A DNA stretch of 49,488 nt, taken from contig JACQXS010000002.1 of assembly GCA_016208615.1 (NCBI GenBank), forward strand, positions 1 to 49,488, read 5' to 3'. The notes below the pieces were generated by a model. It did not search any database, was not told where the DNA came from, and saw nothing but the letters and a program-made list of their open reading frames with translations. Shown here piece after piece: positions 6,060 to 35,466 of the stretch (positions are counted from its first letter, which is position 1; the number at the start of each line of letters is the position of its first letter). The DNA comes from Candidatus Stahliibacteriota bacterium. Its GTDB lineage: Bacteria > Hydrothermota > UBA3073 > JACQXS01. The translations under genes were made by a program, and so were the position numbers.

Positions 6060-6212
6060 TCAAAAATCTAAATTCTAAATCCGAAGCACTAAATCCTAAA
6101 CAAACGAAGTGATGTAATCATCCAATCCCAATTCTCAAAATCCAAATAAATGTCAAAGTCATAAGTCAAAAAATCTTTCCTCCTTTGACATTTGGGTTTT
6201 GGATTTGAACTT
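6060..6212. repeat. Gene-less heptamer-arm element (YAAA arm, short TTTG arm) with one 21-bp hairpin insert
   Basis: Tetramers at 6069, 6076, 6083, 6090, 6097 and 6101, then a 21-bp insert, then 6122, 6129, 6136, 6143, 6147 and 6154. Ends in tttgacatttgggttttggatttgaac. Confidence 0.8.
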
Positions 6213-6238
6213 TCTTTATGGTTATTAGTATTCAGCAT

Positions 6239-7162
6239 TTACCTATTATTAAAATAATCTCTGACAGCATTGTCAAAGTTCCACACCGGAGTATAGTCCA
6301 ATACCTCTTTTGCCTGTGTCAAGTCTGCTTGAGTATAATTCTGATACAAACCTTCATACGGGTTGTCAAAATAATCAGGAGCAAACTTTGTGCCTAATAC
6401 ATCATTTAGTACCTCTATTATGTGGTTGAAAGTGATAGCACAACCTGAGCCAACATTGACAATAGCATTTCTTTTGGCATCTAATGCCAGAATATTAGCA
6501 CGCACTACATCTTTAACATACACTTGGTCGCGTCTTTGGTCGCCCCACTTAAAAATACGCGGTCTCTTACCCTGTAGTATTTGTTGGGCAAGTTGCCAGA
6601 TCATAGAAGCCATCTTGCCCTTATACTGCTCTCGTTGCCCAAAGACATTAAAATACCGAAGCCCGATAATATGAGCCTTAAATTGCTCCATATAATCAAA
6701 AGCTATACAATCAGATTGCCACTTTGACTGTCCATACAGATTAATAGGCTCACCTGCCATAGTTTCTGAAAGCGGCGAAGGAGCATTCCCATACACGCCG
6801 GCGGATGAAGCGTAGATAAACTTTATATTATGAGTAACCGCAAAATCAAGTAGCCGTTTGAAGCCATCAACATTTACTTTTATCATTTGCTCAGTATCTT
6901 TTAATGTAGTATCTGTGATAGCGGCATTATGAAATATAGCCACTACATCCCGACCCGTTCCGTGTCGGGACGGGTCAGAAATTTTGTTCAAATCAAAAGT
7001 AAGAATACTTTCTGCTATAAGCTCGCCCTTGAAACCTACGAGATTTTGCCTATTACCGGTGCTAAAATTATCAACTACTATGACATTATGCCCCAGTCTC
7101 TCTAATTCTAATGCAAGATTAGACCCTATAAATCCACTACCACCTGTAACAAGTAATTTCAT
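6239..7162 (-). CDS. hldD: ADP-L-glycero-D-manno-heptose 6-epimerase-like extended SDR
   Basis: TGGSGFIGS, YASSAGVYG, YGQSK, GLRYFNVFGQREQYKGKMASM and RDQVYVKD motifs match the RfaD/HldD subfamily. Confidence 0.75.
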   Translation of the reverse strand: MKLLVTGGSGFIGSNLALELERLGHNVIVVDNFSTGNRQNLVGFKGELIAESILTFDLNKISDPSRHGTGRDVVAIFHNAAITDTTLKDTEQMIKVNVDGFKRLLDFAVTHNIKFIYASSAGVYGNAPSPLSETMAGEPINLYGQSKWQSDCIAFDYMEQFKAHIIGLRYFNVFGQREQYKGKMASMIWQLAQQILQGKRPRIFKWGDQRRDQVYVKDVVRANILALDAKRNAIVNVGSGCAITFNHIIEVLNDVLGTKFAPDYFDNPYEGLYQNYTQADLTQAKEVLDYTPVWNFDNAVRDYFNNR

Positions 7163-7801
7163 TTACTTCCCACGATTAAGTTTTGCCTCCAAATAGCCCC
7201 ACAAAAACTTAATCTTTAATAATACCGGTAGCTTATCCTTATTATAGTAGAGCAAAAGCCCTCCATCACCACCAAAAGCTTTAATGCCTTTGAGGTCAGG
7301 AACTAATAGAACGCATGGCTCACCATCAACAGTATCAGAGACGATAGGAGTTTTAATAGTATAGTTCTTCTCATCATAATGAAGTGGGACAATAAGTGTA
7401 TCACCGGGAACTAACTCTTGTGTCCGCAACCAATAGATAAGACTCATTATATCTTTTGCACCTTCAATGACATCAACTACATTTCCATTTTTATAAGTAG
7501 CACGACCAGCCACAATATTTACTACCTGATGGCTACTATAGTTACCTTCTTGAATTTTCTTTTCAAATCTAATAGTTGCAAAATTACTATCGCATAAAGA
7601 TTCATACCAATCGTCAATCTTAAATATCATAGAAAAGAAGCCCTTAGTCTTCTCTTCGCACCTTATGTGGTTTAAGTTATCTTGAGGTCTAACCTCACGA
7701 TGGTACATAAGTTTAATTTCACCCGCAGTCATAAGTCCAAATTTCGCAGAATATATAAGCTCCTCATTTAGAGGCAAAAAGGCAAGAATAAATAACCACA
7801 T
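7163..7801 (-). CDS. DUF3108-like exported protein
   Basis: Short signal-like N-terminus. EELIYSAKFGLMTAG, FKIDDWYES, DIMSLIYWLR and LPVLLKIKFLWG resemble DUF3108. Confidence 0.6.
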   Translation of the reverse strand: MWLFILAFLPLNEELIYSAKFGLMTAGEIKLMYHREVRPQDNLNHIRCEEKTKGFFSMIFKIDDWYESLCDSNFATIRFEKKIQEGNYSSHQVVNIVAGRATYKNGNVVDVIEGAKDIMSLIYWLRTQELVPGDTLIVPLHYDEKNYTIKTPIVSDTVDGEPCVLLVPDLKGIKAFGGDGGLLLYYNKDKLPVLLKIKFLWGYLEAKLNRGK

Positions 7802-17948: not shown

Positions 17949-18000
17949 ATAATTGAATAGTTGAATTTTAACCATTCACCATTTAACCAATTACCATTTA
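17931..18000. repeat. Inverted pair of ~8-nt periodic tracts (aaatggtt / aaccattt)
   Basis: aaatggttaagtagttaaataattgaatagttgaat then tttaaccattcaccatttaaccaattaccattta. Contains the hdrB stop codon. Confidence 0.75.
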
Positions 18001-18009
18001 AGCAATAAG

Positions 18010-18783
18010 ATGAGTGGTATTGATCTTCATATACATACGATTTTTTCTGATGGCACTTTAACGCCGGCTGAAGTAGTGAGAGTTGCGTCTGATGTGGGGC
18101 TTACGGCTATTGCTATTGCTGACCATGATGAGATTGGAGGAATAAACCCTGCTATAGAAGAAGTCAGAAGTCAGAAGTCGGAAATCAGAAGTCAGAAGTC
18201 GGAAATCAGAAGTCAGAAGTCAGAAGTTAGAAGTCAGAACCCTAAAAGTCAAACGACCGAGAACCCGATAACCGATAACCTGATAACCGTTAACCGAATA
18301 CCGATAGAAGTAGTGCCGGCGGTGGAAATTTCAAGTCAACTGGATGATAGGAGTGTGCATATTCTTGGGTATTTTATAGACCTTTTGAACCCTGAACTAA
18401 ATGACTTACTTTCTTTCATCTGCAAAGCAAGAATAGAGCGGTCGGAACAAATTGTTCTTTCGTTACAGGAGCTTGGAATTTTTGTGGATATTAAAGAGAT
18501 TGAAAAGATAGCGGGTCCCGGTGTTATTTGTCGTCCCCATATAGCGGCGGAAATGATAAATAGAGGCATAGTAGCTAACAAGGAAGAGGCATTTGGAAAA
18601 TACTTATCTTATCATAGCCCCTGTTATGTACCCAAAATTAACAAGCCAACCCCAGAAGTTATCAAAATTATAAATAATGCAGGTGGGATACCTGTTATTG
18701 CCCATCCATCCTATCTATCGGAAGAAGGGATTAAAAAAATTATAGATGATGAAGTATTACAAAAACTACGGAATTCGGCTTGA
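18010..18783 (+). CDS. PHP-domain metal-dependent phosphoesterase (TrpH/YciV-like) with ~49-aa repeat insert; apparently lacks the C-terminal SDxH segment
   Basis: DLHIHT..SDG, IADHD, VEIS, VHILGY, RPHIA and IAHP present. GIEV and GGSDFHG absent. Confidence 0.8.
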   Translation: MSGIDLHIHTIFSDGTLTPAEVVRVASDVGLTAIAIADHDEIGGINPAIEEVRSQKSEIRSQKSEIRSQKSEVRSQNPKSQTTENPITDNLITVNRIPIEVVPAVEISSQLDDRSVHILGYFIDLLNPELNDLLSFICKARIERSEQIVLSLQELGIFVDIKEIEKIAGPGVICRPHIAAEMINRGIVANKEEAFGKYLSYHSPCYVPKINKPTPEVIKIINNAGGIPVIAHPSYLSEEGIKKIIDDEVLQKLRNSA

Positions 18784-18807
18784 CAATTACATAAAGTGTG
18801 TTACTAT
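18780..18807 (+). promoter_or_regulatory. sigma70-type promoter (extended -10)
   Basis: TTGACA-16 nt-TACTAT with TG one base upstream of the -10. Confidence 0.65.
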
Positions 18808-18899
18808 AAAAAACAAGAAAATGGCAACTTTGTACTCGGATAAAGGGAATATGGACACAGATAATTGGAATATCCGAACAGATGAAAGAGTCGGATATT

Positions 18900-21632: not shown

Positions 21633-23592
21633 CTATTTTTTTAATGCTATTAACAGACAAGTTATATCACTAAATCGTACCCCTGCTATCCTACTTGCCT
21701 GCCCTACGCTCAAAGGACGAAACCGATAAAGCTTCTCTAATGATTCACGCGAAAGTCCCTTAACGCCACTATAATCAAATCCGATAGGTATTTTATAATC
21801 CTCTAACTCCTTAACTCGTTTAACTAATGCCTCTTCCCGTTCTATGTAGCCATCATACTTTGCCTGTATCTCTATTTGTGTACGAACAGCCGAATCAAAA
21901 CGACCTACTATGCTCTCAAATGCTTGCAAATCCAATTCAGGCCGCTTTAATAAATGAAAAATAGTAGTCGGTTGACTTATAAGAGATGAATTATGAGACT
22001 CTAAAATAGAGTTTATATCTTCTGAATATACTTTATGGGATTTTAATTCTTTTAATCTATCTTGAACTTCGCTTTTTAGTTTCTCAACTCCCGCATAATA
22101 AGAATAGTCCACAAGTCCCAGTTCTACCCCATATTTCATCAACCGCTCACCTGCATTATCCTGACGAAGGATTAGCCGATGTTCCACTCGCGAAGTGAAC
22201 ATCCTATAAGGCTCGCTTATTTCCCTAGTCACAAGGTCATCTATCAAAACTCCTATATACCCTTCCTGACGACCCAACACAAATTGAACCCTTGAACCCT
22301 TGAACTTTGAGTTTTGAACTCGCAAACCCGCATTTATACCGGCAATGATTCCCTGAGCCGCAGCCTCCTCATATCCCGATGTCCCAAGCAATTGACCCGC
22401 AAACCATAAATTCTTGACCAACTTACTCTCAAGTGTCGGATAGACCTGATATGGATAGATAAAATCATACTCTATGCCATAACCGGGCTTTAGAATACTA
22501 ACCTCCTCAAGCCCAGAAATTGTATGAAGCATAGCTACTTGAACATCAAAAGGCAGAGAAGTGGACAACCCATTCAAGTAATACTCATCTATATCAAGGC
22601 GTCCGCTTATTCGTATGGGTTAGATAACAAGGCACAGCCGGCGGATTAAAATCTACCGTCCGATGCGAAAAATTGTAGGAACAAGTAGATACCTCTGTCT
22701 TCTGTCCTCTATCTTCTGTCCTCTGTCCTCTGTCTTCTGTTTTTTGTCCTCTATCTTCTGTCTCCTCTCCTACATCCGGCAATTGAGCCACACATTTGCT
22801 AAAATCTATAGTCCGTCCTTCTATACGAGGTGAAGTCCCTGTCTTCAGTCTCCCCATTTCAAAACCCAGTCCCCTTAAACTATCAGAAAGCCCAATCGAT
22901 GGTGGCTCATCCAACCTTCCTGCTGAATGATGCTCCATCCCTATATGGATTAAACCATTCAAAAAAGTGCCCGCTGTCACTATAATTACAGACCCTAAAT
23001 ATTCCTTACCACTCCGCGTCCTCACGCCCACTACCTTTTTAGGATTTGGGATTTCGGATTTTGGATTTTCCACTTTTGGGATTAGGTTTAGATATTGTTT
23101 TGTTTGGAGTTTGGGATTTGGGATTTGGAGCCTGAGGCTCATCAACCTCTGGCTGAGTTTGGGATTTGGGATTTCGGATTTTGGATTTTCTACTATTAGC
23201 TCCACTACCTCTTCCTCTTTTGTTGTCAGATTAGGAGTCCCAAAAATAGTCCCCTGCATCAATTCCATATATCTATTCCTATCTACTTGCGCCCTTAATG
23301 ACCAAACAGCAGGCCCCTTTTTAGTATTCAGCATCTTAAATCCTATACCGGTTCTATCAGTAGCATAACCGATCTCGCCCCCCAATGCATCTACTTCAAA
23401 AATTAACTGCGACTTTCCCAACCCGCCCATTGATGGATTGCAGGAAAGATGTCCTATTTTATCCAATTTCAGAGTCAACAGCAATGTATTTAACCCCATC
23501 CTGGCACAAACTAACGCCGCCTCACTTCCCGCATGCCCACCTCCTACTACTATACAATCAAACGCAGTGCCGGCGAAGTTGACATATTTCAT
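21633..23592 (-). pseudogene. mnmG: tRNA U34 modification enzyme MnmG/GidA, broken by an internal ~50-codon deletion with frameshift at ~22599
   Basis: N-part: VGGGHAGSEAA, SCNPSMGG, KGPAVWSLRAQ, RLKTGT. C-part: NGLSTSLP, GYEEAAAQG, YRMFTSRVEHRL. THTNKRT abuts LDIDEYYLNG in another frame, and GPRYCPSIEDK is absent. Confidence 0.88.
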
Positions 23593-23615
23593 CCCCTATC
23601 CCCCATTTCCTCTTC

Positions 23616-23683
23616 GAACCTTGAACCTTGAACTTTTATTTTTGTGTATTTTAGTGCTTTTGTGTTTTAGTGGCAATGTATTT
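23616..23683. repeat. 68-bp dispersed composite repeat, copy 1
   Basis: Matches 28298-28365 with 2 mismatches. Confidence 0.9.
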
Positions 23684-23875
23684 AAGTTTTGAACTTTGAA
23701 CCATCAGACCATTAGACTATCAAACTATCCCATCTCTGTCAAGCATAATTTAATAAATAGGCAAAAAACAAAAAATATACGAAAAAAAACTTGACAACGA
23801 TAAAAAATAACTTATATGATAGGTATGAAGAGTATCATCCTGTTCAAATGTTCCCGTATCAAAACTGGCAAGGAG

Positions 23876-24010
23876 ATTTGGACATTTGGATTTTGGGATT
23901 TAGGATTTTGAGCCTGAGGCTCATCTGCCTCTGGCTGAGTTTAGGATTTAGTGTCCCGCTTTCTCCGGGATCCCGCTATGGCGGGGCTTCGGATTTAGAA
24001 TTTGATTTTA
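23876..24010. repeat. Heptamer arm (TTTR orientation) with nested 30-bp and 33-bp palindromic inserts
   Basis: tttggattttgggatttaggattttg[23910-23939]tttaggatttagtg[23954-23986]cttcggatttagaatttg. Confidence 0.85.
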
Positions 24011-24014
24011 TATT

Positions 24015-24770
24015 ATGGGTAAAATAGTTACCTCAGGCCTTATTCAATCTATAAAAGGTTCAGCTGGTGAATTTACTTACTCAAGCTGGAAAGGGGTGCA
24101 AGTTTTTAAACAAAGAATGAAAAAAAGAAAAAAAATCCCTACGGAAAAGGAAATCAAAGCAAGAGAAATTTTTGCCTTCCTCGCCAATGAATGGAAAAAA
24201 TTGTCCCTTATAGAATATGCTTTATGGGAATATGAAGCGAAAAGAAAAGGTAAAACATTAAACCCAGCTACCCAAGGATTGATACATATAAGTAAAAATA
24301 GAATGATGGGCAAAAATGCTTTCATGGCGGTTAACCAAACACTCATAGCTTGTGGATTTAAGCACATCCTTTTACCGCCTAACTATCAAACGAAAAAACC
24401 ACCTGTCGTCAAAACAAATATCATAAATAATAATGCTTATGAAAAGAAAATTGAATTCAATTTATGGCTACCTCATCCTTATCATTCAAATTGTGTAGCA
24501 CAAATATGGGGTAAAAGAATGTCAAAAAACGGTTACTCGTACACCATAGCTATTATTCCCGTAAATACTGAAAAAACTAATGTCTGCATTGATAAAATTA
24601 GAACCCAAGAAAATAAAAATATCTGCGAAAAAAGAATCGCCGAATTAGAAAACTCTAAAATAGCAATTCAAATAAGAACCGTAGCAGAAAATGGACTACT
24701 TTCTATGCCCTCGCAAATTTATAAATTAGAAATCAAAAAAAATAATTCCGCTCCACTGCTTACTTCTTAA
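24015..24770 (+). CDS. Basic hypothetical protein with DUF6266-like N-terminus
   Basis: 251 aa, Lys-rich. SIKGSAGEFTYSSWKGVQV..AREIF..W..LS..W pattern recalled from that family. Confidence 0.55.
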   Translation: MGKIVTSGLIQSIKGSAGEFTYSSWKGVQVFKQRMKKRKKIPTEKEIKAREIFAFLANEWKKLSLIEYALWEYEAKRKGKTLNPATQGLIHISKNRMMGKNAFMAVNQTLIACGFKHILLPPNYQTKKPPVVKTNIINNNAYEKKIEFNLWLPHPYHSNCVAQIWGKRMSKNGYSYTIAIIPVNTEKTNVCIDKIRTQENKNICEKRIAELENSKIAIQIRTVAENGLLSMPSQIYKLEIKKNNSAPLLTS

Positions 24771-24779
24771 TCATTACCA

Positions 24780-25045
24780 CTTCTTTTTGAACTTTTTGAC
24801 TATTAGACTTCTTCCCTCTCCCTCTTAATCCTTATTGAAAATCCCGACTTGTTGACAAATCCCGTTTTGGCGGGAGCGGGACTACTTACCTTACTACTTC
24901 TTTTAGTGTTTTCGTGGCATTATATTTCATTTTCAGATGGAGGCTGATCCGCCTCTGGCGGAGAACTTTGACTTTTAAGTTTTTAGTGTCTCTTAGTGTC
25001 TTGGTGCCTTCGTGGCAATGTATTTAGGTTTTTGACTTTTAACCT
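24780..25045. repeat. Composite intergenic repeat cluster
   Basis: Nested tcccg..cggga palindromes at 24842-24881, ggaggctgatccgcctctggcgga at 24939-24962, and a ttagtgtc/cttcgtggca tract. Parallels 27040-27150. Confidence 0.8.
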
Positions 25046-25055
25046 TCTACATATC

Positions 25056-25652
25056 CTAAAAATGAAAACATAACCATGTGCTTAAAGACCCTTCAGATGA
25101 AAGACCAAAACTTATCTTGTTTTGGATATAAGATTCAGGTTCACTATGTGCATAGCTACTCTCCTTTACATAGCTCCGTGAAGCACTTAACAAAGAAGTC
25201 TTAAACCTTAAACTCCATTGATTACCAAAGAGACCAAAAAAATATTCAACCCCAGGAATAAGACTTATGCTGTATAAGTCTTCCTCATCAGAGCCACCAT
25301 ATGGATAATTCTTATTAAAACCAGGTACTAAACCAACGAAAGGTGAAAACGAGCTATGAGCACGAAAGTATTTATAAAACCCGATACCTGTAGATATATT
25401 CCATTGCTTACTTCTAGGACTCTTACCTTGCTCAATATAATAATAATGAGAGCCATCAGAAAAGGATACCTTGCCTGTTATCTCTATCCTAACTGTCTTC
25501 CACGGTCTATATGAAATTGAATAACTACTGGGAACATTGAGAATGTTACTCACCTTCACTCCTACCGTCCATTTGCCTCTTAAGTCCACAATACTCGTCG
25601 GCTCAAACTTCACTCCCATCACCAAAAAACCCATCAATATAAACATACCCAC
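25056..25652 (-). CDS. Small outer-membrane beta-barrel protein
   Basis: Hydrophobic N-terminus, alternating aromatic beta-strands (SPFVG, PGVEYFF), terminal Phe. Confidence 0.7.
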   Translation of the reverse strand: MGMFILMGFLVMGVKFEPTSIVDLRGKWTVGVKVSNILNVPSSYSISYRPWKTVRIEITGKVSFSDGSHYYYIEQGKSPRSKQWNISTGIGFYKYFRAHSSFSPFVGLVPGFNKNYPYGGSDEEDLYSISLIPGVEYFFGLFGNQWSLRFKTSLLSASRSYVKESSYAHSEPESYIQNKISFGLSSEGSLSTWLCFHF

Positions 25653-25822
25653 CCCCTCTTTTAGACATTAGTTTTTATATTTCTTCTATTCCCTTCTTAC
25701 TACTTCTTTTTAACATTTGAACCTTGAACTTTTAGACTTCCTTATTTTCTACCCTTTTTTTCTTATTCTGTCCTCTGTCTTCTGTTTTCTGTCTTCTGTC
25801 CTCTGTCTTCTGTCCTCTGTCG

Positions 25823-26944
25823 TTACTCCTCTATTATCTCCACATTTGCTCGCGGTAGGGTAATACGGGTGCCGTCATCAAGCTCTACTTCAAATACCCG
25901 GGCTGTTGAGCCAGTCCCTATAAGCTGGAGTTCCGAGGGCAAGGCGATTACTTTACCTATCTTACCAAAATAAGGTTCCCGGATAATACGAATTTTAGAC
26001 CCCGCTTCTACGCCACGGACTTCTATCTTCTCTTTTACCTCGGTCAATGCTTCCTCAATTGGCACTATTACTTCGGGCCTTAATACACCAGCCCGAATTT
26101 GGGTCGCCCCATTTATACTTGCCTTCTTACCTTCATTGGTACACAATAATTCGTAGGTCCGTTTCGCTATATCCATTTGACCAAAGCCCTCGGTTACCAC
26201 AAGAGTTAGCCCTTTTTGCTCTGCCCCAGTTATAGCAATCCCAATATCGTAGCCCAAAAAATCCTTCAACTCCTTATCTGCTATGCCGCCTACTATTATA
26301 CCTTTACAACCACACTCTACTGCTTTGTTCAATACAGCACAACTTACATATGACCCAGCAATTATTATTTTGCCCACTAATTCAGCAGTTATATCAGTAG
26401 GAGACAAGACATCTGATGGAGTAGCAGATACTCTTTTAATTATACCACTTGTTTCGCCCCCTATACCGAAGATACCTTGAACAAAGGTGCCTATTGTTTC
26501 TACTACGACACCTTCATCAGGCAAAACTTCTGTTACCTCTCCATCTATGTAGGCATTGATTTCTACAAGAGCGGGCGGATACCTTAATATAGCCTGCCCC
26601 GTTATCTTGGAAAAACTCTCAAATGTCCCTTCTATTGGAGACTTGATTATTGTTTTGAGAAAACCAAATATGCCACCTGTCTGTGCAATTACTTCGTCCT
26701 TCGCTAATGCATCACCAGGATGTTTTAGAAGATAATGCTCCACATCTTCAGGCGGGACCCCCAATAAACCTGCTAAATTTAGGGGTGCCACATCTCCTGA
26801 AAGACGAGTCCGCGCCACTACTGTATCCGCCTTTACCTTATCTCCCTTATGGACTACTACTTCGCCCTTCAAAGGAAGCCTCCTTTCTTTACTTATTCTT
26901 GCTCTTTGGGTTACTTTTAACCCAGGCGTATATGCATGTGCCAT
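25823..26944 (-). CDS. Conserved hypothetical cytoplasmic protein (barrel-sandwich-hybrid-like N-part, KOW/SH3-like C-end)
   Basis: 373-aa well-formed ORF. LPLKGEVVVHKGDKVKADTVVA, QGIFGIGGE, TEGFG, NGATQIRAGV.RPE and IRIIREPYFGKIGKV. Confidence 0.7.
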   Translation of the reverse strand: MAHAYTPGLKVTQRARISKERRLPLKGEVVVHKGDKVKADTVVARTRLSGDVAPLNLAGLLGVPPEDVEHYLLKHPGDALAKDEVIAQTGGIFGFLKTIIKSPIEGTFESFSKITGQAILRYPPALVEINAYIDGEVTEVLPDEGVVVETIGTFVQGIFGIGGETSGIIKRVSATPSDVLSPTDITAELVGKIIIAGSYVSCAVLNKAVECGCKGIIVGGIADKELKDFLGYDIGIAITGAEQKGLTLVVTEGFGQMDIAKRTYELLCTNEGKKASINGATQIRAGVLRPEVIVPIEEALTEVKEKIEVRGVEAGSKIRIIREPYFGKIGKVIALPSELQLIGTGSTARVFEVELDDGTRITLPRANVEIIEE

Positions 26945-26994
26945 AGTTTAAGTTAGAAAATTAAGTTTTTTTATTCCTGCCTTCTGTCATTTTA

Positions 26995-27240
26995 AACCTT
27001 TGAACTCTTGAACCTATTTTTTCTCCTTTTGACATTTGGATTTCATTTTCAGCCGGAGGATGATCCGCCTCTGGCGGAAAACTTTGAGCTTTGACATTTG
27101 AGTTTTTAGTGTCCCTTTGTGTCTTTGTGCCTTCGTGGCATTGTATTTGATTTTTCTCCTTTTGACATTTGGATTTCATTTTCAGCCGGAGGATGATCCG
27201 CCTCTGGCGGAAAACTTTGAGCTTTGACATTTGAACTTTC
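26995..27240. repeat. Composite repeat with 84-bp perfect direct duplication
   Basis: 27018-27101 equals 27151-27234 (TTTG arm plus agccggaggatgatccgcctctggcgg), separated by a tttgtgtc/cttcgtggca tract. Confidence 0.9.
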
Positions 27241-27254
27241 TTTACTTAAAGTCT

Positions 27255-28235
27255 TTACCATTTTAGTACCATCGCTCCCCAAGTGAACCCCGCACCAAAT
27301 CCAGCAAAAAGTATATTATCTCCTCGCTTTATTCTGCCCGTCCTATTTGCTTCATCAAGAGTCAAAGGAATTGAGGCCGCAGGTACATTACCATACTTAT
27401 GAATTACCACATATGTCTTATCCATCGATATGCACATTCGTTCACAAGTTGCCTCTACTATACGCAAATTTGCTTGATGGGGAATAAAAAGGGCAATATC
27501 ATCTATAGTAAGATCGGCTTCTTTTAACACTCGCTTTGCCGAATCCTCCATTGTCCGTATTGCGTGCTTGAAGATTTCTCTGCCTTGCATATGGACGGAG
27601 TGCAACTTTTTGTCTATGGTTTCTTGGGAAGCAGGCATCTGCGTGCCACCCGCCGGCTGGTAAAGAAGTTCTGCAAGGGAACCATCCGCTCCTAAATAAG
27701 ACGCAAGCATTCCACTATCCCCTTCACTTGCAGAAACAATTACGCTACCCGCTCCATCACCAAATAAGACACAAGTGTTACGGTCAGACCAATTGACAAT
27801 CTTAGACATTATTTCAGCACCACAAACAAGTACATTACGATATCTGCCTGTCTCTACTAATGAACTGGCTATCTCAAGTCCATATAAGAAGCCGGAACAT
27901 GCCGCACTTATATCAAAGACGGGTATTTTGGGGATTTTTAACTTCTTCTGAGCCCAACAAGCAGTGCTGGGATAAATAGTATCAGGCGAGGCAGTCGCTA
28001 CTATCATCGCATCAATATCTTTAAGCTCAAGCCCCGTATTCTCTAATGCCTTATATGTTGATTCCACTACTAAATCAGAAGTAGCTGTATCAGGGTCAGC
28101 AATATGACGCTCTTTAATACCGGTGCGCTCGGTTATCCATTCATCTGAAGTATCCATCAGCTTCTCTAAATCAAAATTAGTCAAAACTTTGGGCGGCAAA
28201 TAAGAACCAGTCCCGACAATCTTTATTGGACGCAT
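27255..28235 (-). CDS. fabH: Beta-ketoacyl-ACP synthase III
   Basis: GTGSYLP, DTSDEWITERTGI, AACSGF, LFGDGAG, PHQAN, GNVPAASIP and GFGAGFTWG motifs. Confidence 0.96.
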   Translation of the reverse strand: MRPIKIVGTGSYLPPKVLTNFDLEKLMDTSDEWITERTGIKERHIADPDTATSDLVVESTYKALENTGLELKDIDAMIVATASPDTIYPSTACWAQKKLKIPKIPVFDISAACSGFLYGLEIASSLVETGRYRNVLVCGAEIMSKIVNWSDRNTCVLFGDGAGSVIVSASEGDSGMLASYLGADGSLAELLYQPAGGTQMPASQETIDKKLHSVHMQGREIFKHAIRTMEDSAKRVLKEADLTIDDIALFIPHQANLRIVEATCERMCISMDKTYVVIHKYGNVPAASIPLTLDEANRTGRIKRGDNILFAGFGAGFTWGAMVLKW

Positions 28236-28297
28236 AAAATATAATCTATTAAAAAATAGTAGCTTGTCAAGTTAAAACAACAAGAGTTTTGAATTTT

Positions 28298-28365
28298 GAA
28301 CCTTGAACCTTGAACTTTCATTTTTGTGTATTTTAGTGCTTTTGTGTTTTAGTGGCAATATATTT
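28298..28365. repeat. 68-bp dispersed composite repeat, copy 2
   Basis: Matches 23616-23683 with 2 mismatches. Confidence 0.9.
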
Positions 28366-28455
28366 GGCTTTTGACTTTTGAATTATTTTTTATACTTGAC
28401 TTTGGTATTATTTACTACATTATAGTAAGAAGGCTCTAAAATAGAATACACGAGT

Positions 28456-28798
28456 GGGGGCGAAAGGGCTCGACAGGAGTAGTGAAATAAAGGTTGCATA
28501 CCGAGTAGCTTGTACCTCGTAAAAGCAAGCAAAAGCCATAATTGGCGAAGCTTATAGTGCAGTGGCTGCTTAGTGCAGTCCGTCTCCTAAATTCTGCCCA
28601 TAGGGTTTAGAAAAGACGACGATATATGGGATAGCTTCTCTGCTTTTGGCTGCTGGGACGAGAGGTTAAGCTTTAAGTAGCCTGGCTCCTTAAATCCTGT
28701 CTTGTGGAGTTAAAGAGTAAGATATAAAGTCAAGACTATGTATGTAGACACCTTTATTGAGTTACTTTTGGACGCGGGTTCAATTCCCGCCGCCTCCA
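28456..28798 (+). ncRNA. ssrA: tmRNA; predicted tag (A)GEAYSAVAA* at 28544-28573
   Basis: 5' GGGGGCG pairs with 3' CGCCTCC-A with a G3-U70 pair. CTCGAC near the 5' end, GACGCGGGTTCAATTCCCGC T-arm, and ataatt upstream of a short ORF ending AVAA-stop. Confidence 0.95.
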
Positions 28799-28896
28799 TT
28801 ACCTAACCTTCTTGGCGTTCCTTAATTGCCACGACCTTTAGGTCGTAGATAAAGATGGTTCAATTCCCGCCACCGCCTCCATTACCTAACCTTGGC
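28777..28896. repeat. ~40-bp imperfect direct duplication of the ssrA 3' end around a hairpin
   Basis: 28777-28816 vs 28857-28896. Spacer contains acgacc-ttta-ggtcgt. Confidence 0.9.
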
Positions 28897-30891
28897 AATC
28901 TTAAATGTAGCGGTGTAGGTTGGGGTTTTTAATAGACAGATATATATACCAGATGCTACTTCTTCATTAAGGGAGTTTTTACTATCCCACTCTACTTCTT
29001 TTTGTGAGCCAATAATTTGGAGCTTCTTTATCAATTTGCCTGAAAGCGTATAAATGTAGATTTCCCCATTATCCGCCTCCGGAATATCATATTTGATATA
29101 TGTATTATGAGTAAAAGGGGATGGATACCCGTATGGAATTAGTCTATCTTTCATTGATATAGGGTAAAGTTCACTCCACTGACTTTTATTTCCATTTTCA
29201 TCTTCCGCACACACCCGATACCAGTAAGTAGATTTTTCTTTCCTCTCCACATTAAAGGTAAGTTCTTCGCCCTTATATACAGTAGAGCAGGCACCAAATT
29301 TCCTCACCCTTATGTCATCAATGAACATCCAACTACCCCCCGTTGCCTCGTATTCAAGTTTTAGATACCCTGAACCAGGCAAAGAAATAGCTATCCACTT
29401 CCATATAGGTTCACCATCTGTAATAATAGAAGCTATAGTTATCCAATTAAGTGTATCTCTTGACCATTTACATTTTATATTACCCCCATTCTGCCAATAA
29501 AAGAAGTCAATCATTGCTCCTGCTTCAAATTGCACAGGACTAATAAGCTCCATACTCCCACCCGTAGAATAGAAGCTTTTTTGTCCTGTGTGTATATTAG
29601 CAGCAGAAATAGTAACTCCATTTAATTTCCAATTTATACCTCCCTCCTCTGCCCCATCATTCAAATATGCTTCAACTCCTTGCAATTCTTGCAACCCATA
29701 GCTCTTAACTGCGGTTAAATCATAACTTGCTGTCCAATTTATTTTAAGTGCATTGTTTTTCAAATATTCAATCCCTGAAATCTCACAAGGCAAAGGTGCA
29801 ACAGTATCCGGCACATTGTAAAACTTATACATAAACTTCTCCCACGCAGTATTTTTTGAAAAATCAAGTTCTATATAATCATATACCATAAGCATAAAAG
29901 TGCTATACCCTATCGGAAACCATACAGATATTCCATCCACTTCCTCTCCCAAATACTTGCAAAAACTACAATTAGTTAGAGTATTTTGTAATCTACTTGC
30001 ACTCACTTCTATTTCGCCTGACAGATTATCTGCTATGAAGCCAGCAAACTCTCCTATATCCACATACTCCATATTCCCAAACTCCCGTAATCTATCTCTG
30101 GCCGTATAGATTATAGGGTTTGTAGGGTCAGTTAGAAGAGATTGAACAAATTCCCTAACCCTTGCTGCTAATATTGGAACGCAGAACATATCTACCCTTA
30201 CAATGCTTAAAGTATCATTGCTTCCCGTATAATACTTAATATAATCACTTACTACGCTATCTGCTACTATTTGGACAGTTGTATTCTGATACTTTATTAA
30301 ATCTGTAAGTATGTAGTGGTATGGGAAGCCACTTAATGGCACCTTATCTTCAGAGGCAATAAAGTAATTGATATAGCTCGGAATTGCTGACATAACTTCT
30401 ATACCCCCCATTACACAGGCATCAAAAGCAAGTATATCAACAGTTCCTATCCCTGAAAGTGCATATGTCAATTCCCCCTCAGCTACTGATAACCAGTCTC
30501 TTGATGTTTCATCCCATCCTACACCTTTAGATTCGCCCTTTAGCCACCCATTTCCGTGGTCCCAGATAATTAAAAAGTAATGTTCTGCAGGATAATTCAG
30601 CTTTACCCACTTTCCGAACTCTATCAATGTTTTCGGGTCACCTGTATTTACCTCTCCTATATTTTCAATAAACTTAAGCGTATCGCGGGCTATAAAGTAC
30701 CGCTCAGCAGTGCTTGGTGAATGGGTATCCCAATAGTCTATTTGTGCCACTACATTTACAGATTGGGTAGAGCCAATAGTTTTTAGTTCCTCTATATCCT
30801 GTATAGCAAATTGTCCAATCCCATTATCCGCCGCAAAATAGCACGCCACCGTCCATTTACTGATATTGAGTATAAAAATTAATACCACCAT
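28882..30891 (-). CDS. Clostripain-family (C11) cysteine peptidase with FN3-like and FlgD/T9SS-type C-terminal domains
   Basis: KWTVACYFAADN, EVNTGDPKTL, YPAEHYFLIIWDHGNGW (His) and FDACVM (Cys). Tail YPSPF..IYTLSGKLI..WD.KN..VASGIY. Confidence 0.9.
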   Translation of the reverse strand: MVVLIFILNISKWTVACYFAADNGIGQFAIQDIEELKTIGSTQSVNVVAQIDYWDTHSPSTAERYFIARDTLKFIENIGEVNTGDPKTLIEFGKWVKLNYPAEHYFLIIWDHGNGWLKGESKGVGWDETSRDWLSVAEGELTYALSGIGTVDILAFDACVMGGIEVMSAIPSYINYFIASEDKVPLSGFPYHYILTDLIKYQNTTVQIVADSVVSDYIKYYTGSNDTLSIVRVDMFCVPILAARVREFVQSLLTDPTNPIIYTARDRLREFGNMEYVDIGEFAGFIADNLSGEIEVSASRLQNTLTNCSFCKYLGEEVDGISVWFPIGYSTFMLMVYDYIELDFSKNTAWEKFMYKFYNVPDTVAPLPCEISGIEYLKNNALKINWTASYDLTAVKSYGLQELQGVEAYLNDGAEEGGINWKLNGVTISAANIHTGQKSFYSTGGSMELISPVQFEAGAMIDFFYWQNGGNIKCKWSRDTLNWITIASIITDGEPIWKWIAISLPGSGYLKLEYEATGGSWMFIDDIRVRKFGACSTVYKGEELTFNVERKEKSTYWYRVCAEDENGNKSQWSELYPISMKDRLIPYGYPSPFTHNTYIKYDIPEADNGEIYIYTLSGKLIKKLQIIGSQKEVEWDSKNSLNEEVASGIYICLLKTPTYTATFKIAKVR

Positions 30892-30896
30892 ATAAT

Positions 30897-30930
30897 AAAG
30901 GGGCAGATTTTTATGCTTCCTGCCCCTTTT
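30897..30930. terminator. Hairpin with T-tracts on both strands, between the PorV-like and clostripain genes
   Basis: aaaggggcag...ctgcccctttt. Confidence 0.55.
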
Positions 30931-30972
30931 GTATTCTCCGCCAGAGGCGGATCCCGCTACTACGGGAAAATC

Positions 30973-32019
30973 TTATAATTCTAAATTTACCGCTACCCTA
31001 GGTGCGAGACCTAATTTCCTCATATCCTGTATCGCATAATCAACTGAAATAAGTCTTGTCCCCCCTATAGAATAATTTACACCTACCCCTCCACATATTC
31101 TTGCTGTTGCTTCTTCTCTATCCGTTGTACCTTCCTCTTCTTGTATATCCGGGTCATATATATATCCTATTCTTAAATTAAGCATCTTCATTATACAATT
31201 TTCCACCCCTATATGCACTTTTTCCGCACCATCATTTGGGGAGGATAAGTCAGCCGCTACTGTTAATCTATTCATAGGCACATCTATTATATCGTATGCC
31301 AACCCTAATTTGATACACAATGGTAAATCGTATGGAGTAGCTCTTTTGGCAATATCAGTTGGCGAAATTCCCGATTCAGTACCATCTTCTGTCCACTGTT
31401 CAAAAAGATGTCCTCCCCCATAACACATTTTCGGACCAAAGTTTTTAATCACAAATCCAAACCTCAATGACCCCCAATAACCGGGATAAAAATACATCCC
31501 CATATCCATTGCTATTCCTTGTGCTCTTATATCCCATATTCCCTCTTGCAAATACCTAATATTCGTCCCGAATGCAAATTTATCAGTCATCATCCTGGCG
31601 TATGAAATGCCACAAGCTATTGCCGTATAACTCCAAGTAGTATATTTATTCCCAACCTGGTCCTCCGTTGTGGTTACAGGTTCTTGTGATGATGTCAGTG
31701 CTGATAATGATAGTCCTACATTCCCCATCAATGCCCCCGGTATTATGTAAGCTATAAAATTATTCCTAATCCCTGCAAACCACTCTACATCCGATGAAGC
31801 TATTACCGGTCGCTTAATCAGTGCCAAGCCCGCCGGATTCCAATGAATAGCAAATGGGTCTTTTGTCACAGCAGTATAAGCTTCGCCCATCCCTATTCCT
31901 TTTGGGTCAATTCCAATTTTTAAGAACTCTGCCCCTATTGTGCCGACCTTTGAAAACCGTTCAGCAAATATATTTACTCCTATTAGCAAAACTATTATCA
32001 TTAATCCTACCTTTTTCAT
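30973..32019 (-). CDS. PorV/PorQ (UPF0164)-like outer-membrane barrel
   Basis: Start MKKVGL after a GGAGG RBS. KVGTIGAEFLKIG..GMGEAYTAV..HWNPAGLA, AMDMG and NFGP motifs. Confidence 0.85.
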   Translation of the reverse strand: MKKVGLMIIVLLIGVNIFAERFSKVGTIGAEFLKIGIDPKGIGMGEAYTAVTKDPFAIHWNPAGLALIKRPVIASSDVEWFAGIRNNFIAYIIPGALMGNVGLSLSALTSSQEPVTTTEDQVGNKYTTWSYTAIACGISYARMMTDKFAFGTNIRYLQEGIWDIRAQGIAMDMGMYFYPGYWGSLRFGFVIKNFGPKMCYGGGHLFEQWTEDGTESGISPTDIAKRATPYDLPLCIKLGLAYDIIDVPMNRLTVAADLSSPNDGAEKVHIGVENCIMKMLNLRIGYIYDPDIQEEEGTTDREEATARICGGVGVNYSIGGTRLISVDYAIQDMRKLGLAPRVAVNLEL

Positions 32020-32039
32020 CTCCCCTCCTCTTTTTTTAA

Positions 32040-32199
32040 CAAATCCTAAATTCCAAGCACTAAATCCTAAACTCAGCCAGAGGCTGATGAGCCTCTGGCT
32101 CAAAATCCTAAATCCCAAAATCCAAACATTTTTGTTTGGAAATTTGAATTTGAGACCTTGGAATTTGTTTAGAATTTAGGATTTCGGATTTAGAATTTC
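32040..32199. repeat. Gene-less element: YAAA arm with 30-bp palindrome insert, followed by inverted TTTR arm
   Basis: Tetramers at 32040, 32047, 32054, 32061 and 32068, insert at 32072-32101, then 32102, 32109, 32116 and 32123. Right arm contains tttgttta. Confidence 0.85.
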
Positions 32200-32216
32200 T
32201 CATTTTTGAGCCCTTT

Positions 32217-35200
32217 TTATCTAATTATTGCCAATTTACCTACTTTAGAGTTCTTGTTGGGCGTCGTAACCATATAAAGATACACTCCACTGGCAATTAT
32301 TTGGTCATTCTTAGTTAGCATATCCCATTTTTCCATCCCTCCCAGATTCCCTGGCATTCCACCTACTGAAGTTTCCTTATGGTCAATTACTCGTATAAGG
32401 TCACCTGCCAAAGTATAAATCCTAATCGTACACTCGGATGGCAAATTAGTGAACTGTATCCACCTATAATCATTACTTTTATCCCAGATTGTTCTCACTA
32501 AATAAGGATTAGGCACTACCCTTATTTTGTCCAATTGATGCAACAAACTATCGTATTTAACTTTTGTCGTCTTAATCGTAAATTCGTTTCCTTTGCAAGG
32601 TACTCTAACAGCACAAGAACTGTAAATCGTCCAGATATCGCCTTCCTTAATACTATTGAACCCATTTGTCGTCATAGGACTACCAGCATTAAAGTTATAC
32701 AACACTCCCGCTATATATAATTTACTTGCTTTCTTACTTGCGGTTATCCAATTTCTTGGTTTATTGTGTGGTGGAGATGGGGGTGTTCCCCTAAAACACC
32801 AGCCGGTATTTAAGGTAGAGTCAAATGGAATTTCTATATCATTAGTTATATCCCACACTTCCGCTCTTAATGTATCCCCTGTCTTATACCACCTAATTTC
32901 TACATTTACTCCCCCTCTATAAGCCCATTTTTTGTTTTCCAGTGTAGTATAAATACCATCGCTGCTCGAGTTAGGGACAAAGAATCCACATATTTGCAAT
33001 CCTAATGAATCTGCATATTCACCAGTAGTCACGCATATAGAATCAGGTATCTTAAAAGCACTAATATCAATTATAGTAGTATCTATTATTGTATCCGGTG
33101 GAATAGTATCAATAATGGTAGTATCTATTGTAGTATCCCTCTTTTCAGTCAGGTCTAATGTAACCTTACCCTGCAATCTTATTCCATCAAATACCGGTGT
33201 CATAAAGGTTGTTGCCCATTCTCTAATCGTATCTTTTTGCACACTAATATACTTCTCTTCTTCCAAAGTAAGTTCTATTGGCTCCGGTATAGTAGTTACA
33301 TATTCTCCCTCAGTCTGGTTATAGATTCTATACGAATAAACGGGCAACACTATAGCACCTGGCTGTTCTGTTGGTTTGGCTTCTGCCCTTTTCGTCTCGT
33401 CCCATTTCAGTATATACTCATCTCCTGTTACAGCAATAGGCGTTTCTACTAAGGATGTAAGCGTTACAGTATTTGTCGCCCCTTTAGTCAAATTCGGTAT
33501 TGCTGTGGGATGGATAATATTTTCCGGCTCCGACCTTGGCGTACAAGTTATAGCTTTATATCCTGCTTCTAATGAACCCCAAACATTAAGATTAGGGGTG
33601 TTGGGATTCCCTAAGGTATTAAAATCGTAAGGCGTTACGGCATAAAAGTAAGATACCCCGTTGATTATATCCTCATCTACATATGAGTAGGCTAACCCAC
33701 TATTCTTACTATTTTGTCCACTCATATTACCATAACCCGGAATATAAGAATCACCGGGCAATAAAGTTATATCATTCTTTACATCCCATTGTCCTATAAC
33801 CTCCCACTCGCCCGTAATTCCTGTCCTTGACCTCCATAACCTGTAGCCCTCAAAATCATATTCCTTATACAGTGAGTCATTTGCCGACCTCATCACTCCC
33901 AGCCACTCATCCGGTACATTTTCAGACGAATTATCCCAAACAATGGTCACCTTCCCATCCCCGGGGACAACAATAACATTAGGCACTGGGGGTGCTGACA
34001 ATACAGGCCATCTATACCACGAAATTATAGTATCCGCACAGGTATCAGAGACTAAAACCCTACCATTATACATAAATTGTGCTACATCGCCCTGCTCAAG
34101 TAAATACTCCTTATCCCTTGTATCTCCATTAGAGAACATAACTCCAAACATAAGTGTATCTATTTCTCCGGGGTCCATTGTAAAAGGCCCGCACCCCATA
34201 ACCATTCTTTTATCAGCAGGATTATAGTCAGCCGCACTTCCAAACGGGTCATATTTAAAGCTCTCTATATTATATCCGGCTAACATTTGATATTTTTGCT
34301 CTTCGGTCCTTGCATCATAACCTCTCGTGCATCGGGAAAATGCAGTCAACGGTATATTCTCCCCCGGATAGATAGTATCTTTAGGCCCCTCGGTCACAGT
34401 CGTCCCAAATACAAATATCGTATCATCCGCTGTCGGTCCTTGGAAGAACTTTTTACCTACATAATAGGGTGGCGTAGCACTCCATCCCGGTTCCTGCGTA
34501 GGACTCATCGTCCAGCCCAAACTCCTTCCTATATCTAATCCTAACAAGTCATCATCCGCATATCCCACATCATCATCCGCGGCATGCCCAAGGAACACAT
34601 TTTTAAGTGTATCATCGCTTATATTTTTAATATAATAAAAGAAGAATATCATATTCTTAGTTTTCTCTGTATTCCATGCCATGGTCATTTGCTCTATATG
34701 TATTCCTAAAGGATATGTTCCCGCTTCCCACCTATGCAAAGAGTCGCACAAATCATTATATTCACACCAAGTATCGTGATGCGAAATAAAAATCGGCTCC
34801 CCGCTACAATCTCTATAAGGCCATAATAAGGTATCTTGCGTACTATCTGAGAAAAGTATTCTATTTTCTGGATGCGAGTTATGATTTTCGAATTGGTCCC
34901 ATATATCTTGTGAATCTGGAGGCCCCGGTATAAAGTCACATCCATTTCCAACTGGATTGTAACCACACGATACAAGTATATCTCCTATAAGTGTATCAGG
35001 TAGCGATCCATATCCTGTGGTTCGTTGAAAAGCATACACTGTTCCACCTGCTCGCTCTATAAATGCTCCTACCCATATTCCAGCTCCAAATATATATGGT
35101 TGACCTGTTCCCTTGGGCCAATAACAACCTGCACTATGCGCTTCACTCATTCCGAATGTCCCATAATTCGTAATCGGCATATCCACTTCATTTATCTTTA

Positions 35201-35306
35201 CCCGCTGTAACTCAAATATCTTTGTCCCATCTACTGGCTTCTTCGCCTCTGCCAATGCTACTACTAATAGCATACTTATTGCTATTCCACAAATCCTTTT
35301 TCCCAT
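32217..35306 (-). CDS. Large secreted protein with FN3-like domain and T9SS/FlgD-like C-terminus
   Basis: Start MGKRICG after a GGAGG RBS, with signal peptide. TNYG..WPKG..IFGAGIWVG, FEGYRLWRS, NGVSYFYAVTPYD and IRVVPNPY..FTNLP..IYTLAGDLI..IASGVYLY. Confidence 0.85.
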   Translation of the reverse strand: MGKRICGIAISMLLVVALAEAKKPVDGTKIFELQRVKINEVDMPITNYGTFGMSEAHSAGCYWPKGTGQPYIFGAGIWVGAFIERAGGTVYAFQRTTGYGSLPDTLIGDILVSCGYNPVGNGCDFIPGPPDSQDIWDQFENHNSHPENRILFSDSTQDTLLWPYRDCSGEPIFISHHDTWCEYNDLCDSLHRWEAGTYPLGIHIEQMTMAWNTEKTKNMIFFFYYIKNISDDTLKNVFLGHAADDDVGYADDDLLGLDIGRSLGWTMSPTQEPGWSATPPYYVGKKFFQGPTADDTIFVFGTTVTEGPKDTIYPGENIPLTAFSRCTRGYDARTEEQKYQMLAGYNIESFKYDPFGSAADYNPADKRMVMGCGPFTMDPGEIDTLMFGVMFSNGDTRDKEYLLEQGDVAQFMYNGRVLVSDTCADTIISWYRWPVLSAPPVPNVIVVPGDGKVTIVWDNSSENVPDEWLGVMRSANDSLYKEYDFEGYRLWRSRTGITGEWEVIGQWDVKNDITLLPGDSYIPGYGNMSGQNSKNSGLAYSYVDEDIINGVSYFYAVTPYDFNTLGNPNTPNLNVWGSLEAGYKAITCTPRSEPENIIHPTAIPNLTKGATNTVTLTSLVETPIAVTGDEYILKWDETKRAEAKPTEQPGAIVLPVYSYRIYNQTEGEYVTTIPEPIELTLEEEKYISVQKDTIREWATTFMTPVFDGIRLQGKVTLDLTEKRDTTIDTTIIDTIPPDTIIDTTIIDISAFKIPDSICVTTGEYADSLGLQICGFFVPNSSSDGIYTTLENKKWAYRGGVNVEIRWYKTGDTLRAEVWDITNDIEIPFDSTLNTGWCFRGTPPSPPHNKPRNWITASKKASKLYIAGVLYNFNAGSPMTTNGFNSIKEGDIWTIYSSCAVRVPCKGNEFTIKTTKVKYDSLLHQLDKIRVVPNPYLVRTIWDKSNDYRWIQFTNLPSECTIRIYTLAGDLIRVIDHKETSVGGMPGNLGGMEKWDMLTKNDQIIASGVYLYMVTTPNKNSKVGKLAIIR

Positions 35307-35329
35307 TATTCCTCCCTCCTTAATCATAT

Positions 35330-35466
35330 AAAGTTCAAATGTCAAGAATCTTTTCCTTTCTTTGACATTTGGATTTGATTTGTCCCGCATTAGCGGGATC
35401 CCAAAGAAAGCGGGAAACTTTAATCTTTGGCATTTGAACTTTAACTTTAACTTTAACTTTAACTTT
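35330..35466. repeat. Heptamer-arm element with nested 33-bp double palindrome and (aacttt)n tail
   Basis: aagttcaaatgtcaag...tttgacatttggatttgatttg[35383-35415]aactttaatctttggcatttg(aacttt)x5. Confidence 0.85.

Follow-up and report, generated by a model that had tools for sequence, protein, structure and literature searches.

The window analysed here is the entire 49.5-kb contig JACQXS010000002.1 (49,488 nucleotides) of an uncultured groundwater bacterium, Candidatus Stahliibacteriota bacterium, whose assembly (GCA_016208615.1) comprises 2.12 Mb in 126 contigs with 83% completeness and 37.7% G+C. Its genes are ordinary and include those for proteins with type IX secretion system (T9SS) tails, FabH, MnmG, a helicase and proteases, and a search of the window against Rfam returned a tmRNA (28456-28801) and a tRNA (21463-21536) as sole matches, with no rRNA gene. 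Between and within these genes lie short palindromes, several of them lodged in the arms of longer inverted repeats (scaffolds) that consist of tandem heptamers. These secondary palindromes, the junctions at which they are found and the arms that carry them are the subject of the present analysis.

Three main families were named: H21, a 21-nt hairpin; SS30, a 30-nt double hairpin; and CC33, a 33-nt double hairpin. Element ends were defined as T...A and coordinates are given accordingly. Empty sites were searched by joining the 35-nt flanks of each doublet and comparing the product with the genome by BLAST. Coding status was judged from open reading frame (ORF) length, with at least 40 codons of open frame on either side, and from Pfam matches; gene calls were not used. 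The phylum comparison set consisted of 41 genomes, this one included. A generic pairing of the left and right flanks of all 3662 hairpin regions gave 250 pairs, mostly at 0 or multiples of 21, and was too insensitive.

Palindromic elements of the window

All palindromes listed in an initial annotation, which was made from the sequence alone, are present, its coordinates being exact for the 33-bp double palindromes and one nucleotide off for the 30-mers under the T...A definition of ends. One SS30 copy (32073-32102, plus strand) is lodged in a scaffold-A element with inverted heptamer-tract arms (32030-32205, strand unassigned, about 175 nt with the insert), where it occupies the left arm and precedes what is likely to be the true start of a PorV-like gene; 13 of its 17 empty-like paralogs aligned without a gap, and its DNA fold amounts to -13.2 kcal/mol (z -4.7 against shuffles). 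An intergenic SS30 (23909-23938, minus strand) occupies the CTAAAC|AAAT junction of a scaffold-A arm, the same as that of the 32073 copy, and shares the arm with a CC33 (23954-23986, plus strand) located 15 nt away. Within MnmG, a diverged SS30 (23127-23156, minus strand) translates as LSQRLMSLRL, as the annotation had read it, and is part of a 47-48-aa insert composed of arm, SS30 and arm.

Other CC33 copies are found in frame (SRFFRDPDTAG) and flanked by heptamers in the PD-(D/E)XK domain of a UvrD/AddA-like helicase (2199-2231, minus strand) and, as an intergenic variant, in the centre of a scaffold-D element (35383-35415, minus strand). The related units pointed out earlier turned out to be SS30 variants and a hybrid. 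A variant with CAGCC/CCGCC stems occupies the centre of a scaffold-D element (27049-27078, plus strand) and recurs in identical form in a tandem second scaffold-D copy (27182-27211, plus strand), and a diverged CCGCC variant is intergenic (24933-24962, plus strand). The hybrid, an intergenic S+C double hairpin of 31 nt (15+16; 30937-30967, plus strand), breaks the multiple-of-3 rule discussed below.

The 21-bp hairpin that had been placed in a short skip near 6101 is a single H21 unit (6105-6125, minus strand), situated directly after CAAA of a scaffold-A arm, and 12 of its 22 empty-like paralogs are gapless. Furthermore, a gene with LVIVD repeats has four perfect tandem H21 units close to its 5' end (19224-19307, plus strand; FDDYITA four times if translated).

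Anatomy and conservation of the hairpins

With up to two mismatches allowed, the 30-mer pattern had 46 matches in the genome, in which most copies count once per strand, and the H21 pattern had 62; because the reversed-pattern controls gave 0 in both cases, the palindromes are not products of chance. SS30 and CC33 each consist of two directly abutting hairpin units, every unit having the form T-stem-loop-stem-A. The S unit has 15 nt, T[C/G][A/C]GCC-NNN-GGC..A, and the C unit 16-18 nt, TCCCG..CGGGA. A strict scan detected 22 SS doublets, all of 30 nt, 31 CC doublets (30 of 33 nt and one of 34 nt) and eight mixed doublets, six of them of 33 nt (SC33) and two of 31 nt. All of the combinations SS, SC, CS and CC were found, which indicates that the units recombine.

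Folded as single strands and compared with shuffled sequences, H21 reached a z-score of -8.0, together with the value for SS30 at 32073 given above, and CC33 and the CCGCC variant were weaker (z -2.1 to -3.1). The outer 2 bp of the S unit are complementary in 71 of 96 matches, with approximately 6 expected, the pairs being CA/TG (28), GA/TC (20) and CC/GG (20). Likewise, in the 21-mer format TT-stem5-A.TA-stem5-C.... the 5-bp stem is fully complementary in 57 of 133 cases, with approximately 1 expected, and six different stems are in use. One of these six is represented in the window by 3.9 tandem 21-nt units of H21 architecture with a TGGGC/GCCCA stem (3696-3776, plus strand), which are read as in-frame SGLLPKQ repeats in the helicase and are missing from its homologs. 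Since the stems covary through double changes, it is the hairpin shape itself that is conserved.

H21 forms 42 arrays of 1-5 units in the genome, 70 units in total, and 15-nt hairpins likewise form tandem arrays. A further family of 24 nt, TTGAAAATCCCG|CAGCAAGCGGGA, inserts in its own centre with up to three levels of nesting, producing runs of 12-nt half units; its copies in the window are located at 117-140, 24835-24880 and 38742-38765, the last one being a 24-nt hairpin element on the minus strand. Single C-type hairpins of 16-17 nt were also considered as independent inserts and rejected, as a clean empty site was found in 0 of the 54 with matches and they proved to be parts of larger repeats, including the 24-nt family. 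It should be added that 137 tandem arrays of period 21 exist genome-wide, many with a hairpin-forming unit of their own and with up to 12.9 copies, one of them at 18900-19069 of the window.

Exact insertion and re-use of junctions

An empty-like paralog was retrieved for 42 of the 59 doublets, and in 37 of these 42 testable cases the modal net indel at the junction was 0 (22 CC33, 11 SS30 and 4 SC33). Counted per alignment, net 0 was observed in 301/376 for CC33, 163/211 for SS30 and 18/18 for SC33, part of this count being soft because 7-periodic flanks favour gapless BLAST alignments. The inserts therefore amount to 30 or 33 nt exactly, and the target is not duplicated, in intergenic copies as well. 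Exact insertion was also seen in non-periodic contexts such as GTGCGGGTCAGGGGAC|CCGCAC, where CC33 interrupts another hairpin repeat, and TAAGCTT|AATCC, which is interrupted by SS30; as these contexts have no period, neither result is an artefact of register. In the case of H21, 15 arrays could be tested; the insert was a whole multiple of 21 nt in 11 of them, with TTTG flanks on both sides.

Among tandem arrays outside long ORFs, the period was a multiple of 3 in 79 of 104, of which 64 had period 21, and after exclusion of multiples of 7 in 14 of 23. The earlier proposal that lengths are multiples of 3 even between genes stands for SS30 (30 nt), CC33 and SC33 (33 nt) and H21 (n x 21 nt) and fails as a strict rule, with lengths of 31 and 34 nt also occurring. 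CC33 is open in all six frames, for which the probability by chance is about 1/4 by rough estimate, and this property was not used as evidence.

The same junctions receive different elements. Scaffold A has the form ...CTAAATCCTAAA|CAAA|TYCCAA (also written ...AAATTCTAAATCCGAAATCCTAAATCCTAAA|CAAA|TYCCAA...), and its CAAA site is empty in 23 copies and filled with H21 in five, with SS30 in four and with a 30/31-nt hybrid doublet in one. In scaffold D, SS30 is found at CATTT|GAACTTT and CC33 one base on, at GATTTG|AACTTT. Within GGGATTT tracts CC33 always follows TTTG, and the number of flanking heptamers varies. Over all copies, CC33 has G at -1 in 25/31 and T at -2 in 24/31, and SS30 has T at -1 in 16/22 and A at +2 in 21/22. 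The recurring feature of the sites is a short T-rich|A-rich junction.

Sites outside the heptamer arms comprise unique positions in genes, a palindrome centred on AAGCTT and a hairpin repeat not built of heptamers. Because many copies sit outside arms, the arms are good targets and not the sole ones. The elements are also layered: one arm houses both SS30 and CC33, a different hairpin repeat harbours CC33, and the 24-nt family is nested in itself. Fixed positions, site-specific insertion and a layered system, all put forward in the initial annotation, are borne out by these data; its view of the arms as special landing pads is not.

Copies inside genes

Of 99 strict elements, 31 are situated in long open frames; Pfam domains support 28 of the 31. 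The host genes encode RecG, QueA, lipoate ligase, PrmC, ValRS, AspRS, YbeY, GcvT, GcvP and DnaE, and further a Mur ligase, Fmt, MreC, a PurM-like protein and others. Copies occur in both orientations and use at least five reading frames, and their in-frame position within Pfam-supported genes agrees with the suggestion that the insert lengths preserve the frame. The 47-48-aa insert of MnmG is absent from seven aligned orthologs, and the 29-aa helicase insert that bears CC33, located between two PD-(D/E)XK motifs, is absent from 6/6 aligned homologs. In a metagenome scan, the helicase query retrieved full-length relatives with 36-43% identity and three short fragments, in which the in-frame inserts were absent.

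Heptamer arms and 23S_rRNA_IVP cassettes

The window contains an intervening sequence (IVS)-like cassette (41363-41836, plus strand), in which a gene with a PF05635 (23S_rRNA_IVP) domain for a four-helix-bundle protein (41414-41773; IVP gene below) is enclosed by inverted scaffold-D heptamer arms. Its product has a relative in the Protein Data Bank (PDB), 2rld (E 1.6e-13). Ten IVP loci were detected in the genome, one of them in scaffold-A arms and another in scaffold-D arms, with most others between inverted tracts of a heptamer of their own; the commonest heptamer of this genome is GACAGAA/GACAGAG. The score of the flanking inverted repeat was at least 16 in 8/10 loci and above 21 in 6/10, the window cassette scoring 27. 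In the control of 394 ORFs the mean was 10.4, the 99th percentile 16.07 and the maximum 21, a score of 16 thus being just under the 99th percentile. The IVP gene is present in 28 of the 41 genomes, and among 28 loci sampled in relatives 24 reach a score of at least 16. The arms are the inverted tandem-heptamer stems of cassettes with a 23S-rRNA-IVS-type four-helix-bundle gene, together with gene-less derivatives of these cassettes.

In excerpts of a paper on Coxiella burnetii (PMC4990558), the IVS is described as a stem with an S23p ORF and a variable number of GACAGAT heptamers. The cassettes reported here are alike in having an inverted-repeat stem around an S23p/four-helix-bundle ORF and tandem heptamers, a likeness that concerns the arms and not the palindromes. 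They differ from the 23S rRNA IVS in being placed between and within protein genes, not in rRNA, and in their many gene-less derivatives. In the literature seen, a link between such arms and the IVP gene appeared in the Coxiella paper only (PMC4990558).

Distribution among relatives

H21 was detected in 1 of the 41 genomes, this one only. SS30 was detected in 3/41, namely in this genome, in a second one from the same order (9 matches) and in one other (1 match), and was not found in three genomes of the same family among the 41 searched. This distribution fits recent expansion. The double-hairpin motif is also present in several metagenome-assembled genomes (MAGs) titled candidate division WOR-3.

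Two side observations concern double hairpins elsewhere. In three WOR-3 species genomes (loci L027, L029, L038, L039 and L040), a 34-nt double hairpin is preceded by the same 45 nt, which suggests a larger mobile element common to the three species. Moreover, the 22-nt core of CC33 has four copies in a MAG titled Patescibacteria group, three in one shared context and one in another, and a single copy on a 1.3-kb contig titled Armatimonadota.

Candidate enzymes

The annotation had stated that no enzyme gene was in view. This holds for HUH, reverse transcriptase (RT) and GIY-YIG domains, none of which was found in ORFs of the window, but the arms bracket the IVP gene and the genome has seven RAYT-like loci, of which two exceed the NCBIfam cut-off in a scan of the proteins. 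RAYT-like genes exist in 31 of the 41 genomes, and their presence does not follow that of SS30 or H21. The search for GxxExxY/PDDEXK_3 produced one truncated copy. Three small GIY-YIG genes stand beside or near tRNA or tRNA-like sequence, one of them with an S-type doublet 40 nt upstream; a link of GIY-YIG genes to the elements was considered and set aside, three genes and one doublet being too few cases.

Some details of these loci may be added. Two of the GIY-YIG genes (G000:C14:13781-14200 and C42:18006-18310) are directly upstream of complete tRNA genes and the third (C108:56-310) is near tRNA-like sequence; on C14, a partial 5' copy of tRNA-Ser that carries the S-type double hairpin precedes the GIY-YIG gene. 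One RAYT-like gene (L002; G000:C24:11883-15146) is flanked by nested GTAG-headed hairpins and lies between the type I restriction genes hsdM and hsdS. Palindromic inserts are also present in frame within two of the RAYT-like ORFs, at 1690-1745 of L004, where the insert is an inverted pair of GTAG-headed hairpins, and at 1380-1490 of L001.

Interpretation and alternatives

We consider it rather probable that the secondary palindromes are non-autonomous micro mobile elements, whose hairpin shape would serve for recognition and whose insertion at short junction motifs would be exact. We infer this mobility from filled and empty paralogs, from absence in orthologs and from lineage-specific expansion, and not from alleles at one locus. 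The modules would be either T-stem-loop-stem-A units of 15-17 nt, two of which make up 30 or 33 nt, or single hairpins of 21 nt, and an enzymatic machinery that reads the hairpin shape, putatively in single-stranded form, would copy them and insert them exactly with no target duplication. SS30 would target TTT|AAA-like sites, CC33 would go after TTG and H21 next to TTTG. As H21 would regenerate TTTG at its own end, tandem H21 arrays would arise, and as the 24-mer would target its own centre, it would become nested. Heptamer-tract arms are rich in such junction motifs, and for this reason would look like landing pads; a filled arm may then be copied again as a composite unit, and the re-copying of arm-plus-insert composites would account for the layers. 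The multiple-of-3 rule would act as a filter on families and not on single insertion events: in a gene-dense genome, multiple-of-3 families would dominate because only those can also persist inside ORFs, and intergenic copies would be multiples of 3 because the family length is carried along.

Several observations weigh against this interpretation. The MnmG insert is a whole unit of arm, SS30 and arm copied as a composite, and the tail variants of H21 partly track the scaffold type; some same-position copies are probably one event copied along with the scaffold, and since whole arm-plus-insert units are copied, part of the signal of identical position is shared descent. The 31-nt hybrids, the one 34-nt CC doublet and the 34-nt double hairpin of other WOR-3 genomes are off the length rule, and the net 0 count has the softness mentioned above. 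Relative to local GC skew, the strand bias of H21 (26:8, p = 0.003) and SS30 (16:5, p = 0.03) counts in its favour, with p-values that overstate the effect because the copies are not independent, but CC33 has no bias (13:16). No presence/absence allele was found at any single locus, and the metagenome scan with the helicase query yielded no close strain, the best full-length relative being 43% identical. Contigs of four groundwater runs of one study, compared with positions 18000-36000, break at the repeats with no clean skip of 21, 30 or 33 nt, which gives no verdict either way. Finally, no enzyme could be linked to the SS30, CC33 and H21 families. Whereas the annotation had proposed looking for HUH, GIY-YIG, GxxExxY or RT genes flanked by the palindromes, 0/7 RAYT-like loci are flanked by SS30, CC33 or H21 (in a genome 83% complete), the repeats beside RAYT-like loci, where seen (contigs C24 and C95), are GTAG-headed, and the search with RVT_1 had 0 matches.

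Among the alternatives, it is possible, though we are doubtful, that the palindromes are repetitive extragenic palindromic (REP) elements or REPINs moved by RAYT, of the Y1 HUH family, acting on single-stranded hairpins. Excerpts of the REP literature (PMC3116915, PMC3733652) describe palindromes to which those studied here are similar in size (20-40 nt), in high copy number, in forming doublets and in the company of RAYT genes in the genome, and a single-strand substrate is plausible. The seven loci of this genome and the matches in 31/41 genomes of the phylum point in the same direction, as do the hairpins, the missing target duplication, the short adjoining motif, the strand bias of H21 and SS30 and the ability of SS30 at 32073 to fold as a single 11-bp hairpin, as in REPINs. 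However, the elements depart from REP/REPIN in three of the features tested: SS30, CC33 and H21 start with T.../TTTG and have no GTAG/CGTC head, although other repeats of the genome have one; none of them flanks a RAYT locus; and about 30% of the copies are intragenic and not extragenic. The presence of RAYT among relatives also fails to track SS30 or H21. A Y1/HUH enzyme is only a candidate for the palindromes.

Shared descent as the whole explanation, in which each palindrome entered each scaffold once, the filled scaffold was amplified and fixed position means inheritance, seems unlikely to us. The composite MnmG insert, the H21 tail variants and the flank variants that the four SS30-filled scaffold-A copies have in common are all expected on these grounds, but H21, SS30 and the hybrid at the same CAAA and two inserts 1 nt apart in scaffold D are not, nor is the presence of the same elements at many unrelated sites, 28 Pfam-supported genes included, or the variable number of heptamers around CC33.

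An equally improbable explanation would dispense with a dedicated enzyme and let the hairpins multiply by errors of replication or repair, namely template switching or slippage, with gene conversion between similar scaffolds to spread them. The variable copy number of tandem 21-nt units (1-5 in H21 and up to 12.9 in other arrays), the 12-nt half units of the nested 24-nt family and the searches in which no enzyme was found speak in its favour. Near-identical 30/33-nt sequences nevertheless stand at unique sites of unrelated genes, where no similar flank could template conversion, the loops and tails are conserved while the stems covary, and the junction motifs are defined. That the palindromes act in cis as signals under selection (as terminators or as sites of protein binding or RNA processing) and recur through usefulness is very improbable, since their stable hairpins and frequent position at gene ends or just upstream of starts have to be set against copies inside DnaE, ValRS, AspRS, RecG and MnmG, the missing Rfam family match, the lineage-specific families and the use of both orientations and at least five reading frames.

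To return to micro mobile elements moved by recognition of the hairpin, a more far-reaching version can be put forward as speculation that we would not ourselves expect to hold in full. It would be a bacterial hairpin micro-transposon class of 21-33 nt with exchangeable 15-17-nt modules, inserted without target duplication by a structure-reading enzyme whose role as a transposase has gone unrecognised. The elements would have evolved multiple-of-3 lengths that let them colonise essential ORFs, and they would be carried by a second selfish layer, the IVS-like cassettes that have heptamer arms and an Avd-like gene for a four-helix bundle.

As a rule, repeats of such small size are taken for signals or for immobile sequence. 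Through the combination of filled and empty copies, covarying stems and in-frame copies in essential genes, very small selfish DNA becomes tractable here for an uncultured phylum. Should the multiple-of-3 filter be real, the coding density of the host selects the length of the element and a steady supply of short peptide insertions would enter conserved enzymes. The link between arms and four-helix-bundle gene provides a testable origin for the long-unexplained heptamer repeats of bacteria and a defined biochemical substrate for the palindromes.

Comparison with known repeat systems

By their features, the palindromes appear to be best matched by the known kind of micro-repeat (SDR, double-hairpin element or GC cluster, REP), here in candidate division WOR-3, the closest bacterial match being the small dispersed repeats (SDR) of Nostocaceae. 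These were reportedly described by Elhai and colleagues in 2008 as hairpin-forming repeats of 21-27 nt, both dispersed and tandem. Excerpts of papers citing that work give a size of about 20 nt, dispersed and tandem occurrence and the insertion of SDR5 exactly inside HIP1, and one of them reports that no SDR-like repeat had been detected outside Nostocaceae. As far as these excerpts go, the likeness extends to hairpin repeats that are dispersed and in variable tandem arrays, are thought to be mobile, have an exact short target, occur in heptamer-rich genomes and have no enzyme assigned. H21 and the 24-nt family are within the 21-27 nt of SDR, and SS30 and CC33 are longer; insertion at an exact short target and nesting in other repeats were found here as well. 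The differences are the other phylum and other sequences, the recombining two-hairpin modules of 30/33 nt and the approximately 30% of copies in ORFs.

Double-hairpin elements (DHE) of Allomyces mitochondria, according to excerpts (PMC2800124, PMC4478555), have no flank duplications, and their units merge and shuffle; the same excerpts report AG or ACT flank repeats for GC clusters of yeast mitochondria and a 48-nt cluster within var1. Like these, as there described, the present elements are G+C-rich two-hairpin modules in an A+T-rich genome, some of them intragenic, with the enzyme unassigned. Unlike them, they belong to a bacterial chromosome and not to an organelle, are uniform in length at 30 or 33 nt with the 31/34-nt exceptions, and are tied to heptamer arms.

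Rickettsia palindromic elements (RPEs), in the part of the literature seen (PMC10969869), are in-frame palindromic repeats in unrelated housekeeping genes, which is also the case here; at about 150 bp they are nonetheless much longer than elements of 21-33 nt, which reach approximately 140 nt only as composites. Miniature inverted-repeat transposable elements (MITE) have terminal inverted repeats, a target-site duplication and 50-500 bp, from which the doublets differ by their 30-33 nt and lack of duplication; the scaffolds have about 140-175 nt with inverted arms. IS200/IS605-derived (PATE-like) elements are marked by subterminal hairpins, insertion without duplication 3' of a fixed tetra- or pentanucleotide and a cognate TnpA gene. 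Hairpins, junction motifs and a lack of duplication were seen here, and the Y1_Tnp matches all look RAYT-like and are unlinked to the palindromes.

Further observations on window genes

MnmG (21633-23592) occupies two separate ORFs, 22594-23592 and 21633-22577, and is without about 63 residues, including GPRYCPSIEDK, a motif present in all seven aligned orthologs. One public contig ends at 22598, within the MnmG region; the split gene is either a pseudogene or the result of an assembly join. A PHP-domain gene contains in frame (18159-18306) 11.6 AGAAGTC heptamers and a second heptamer tract (RSQKSEIRSQKSE...), and the MnmG of a relative from the same order has a KSEIRSQ insert that resembles the heptamer run of this PHP gene.

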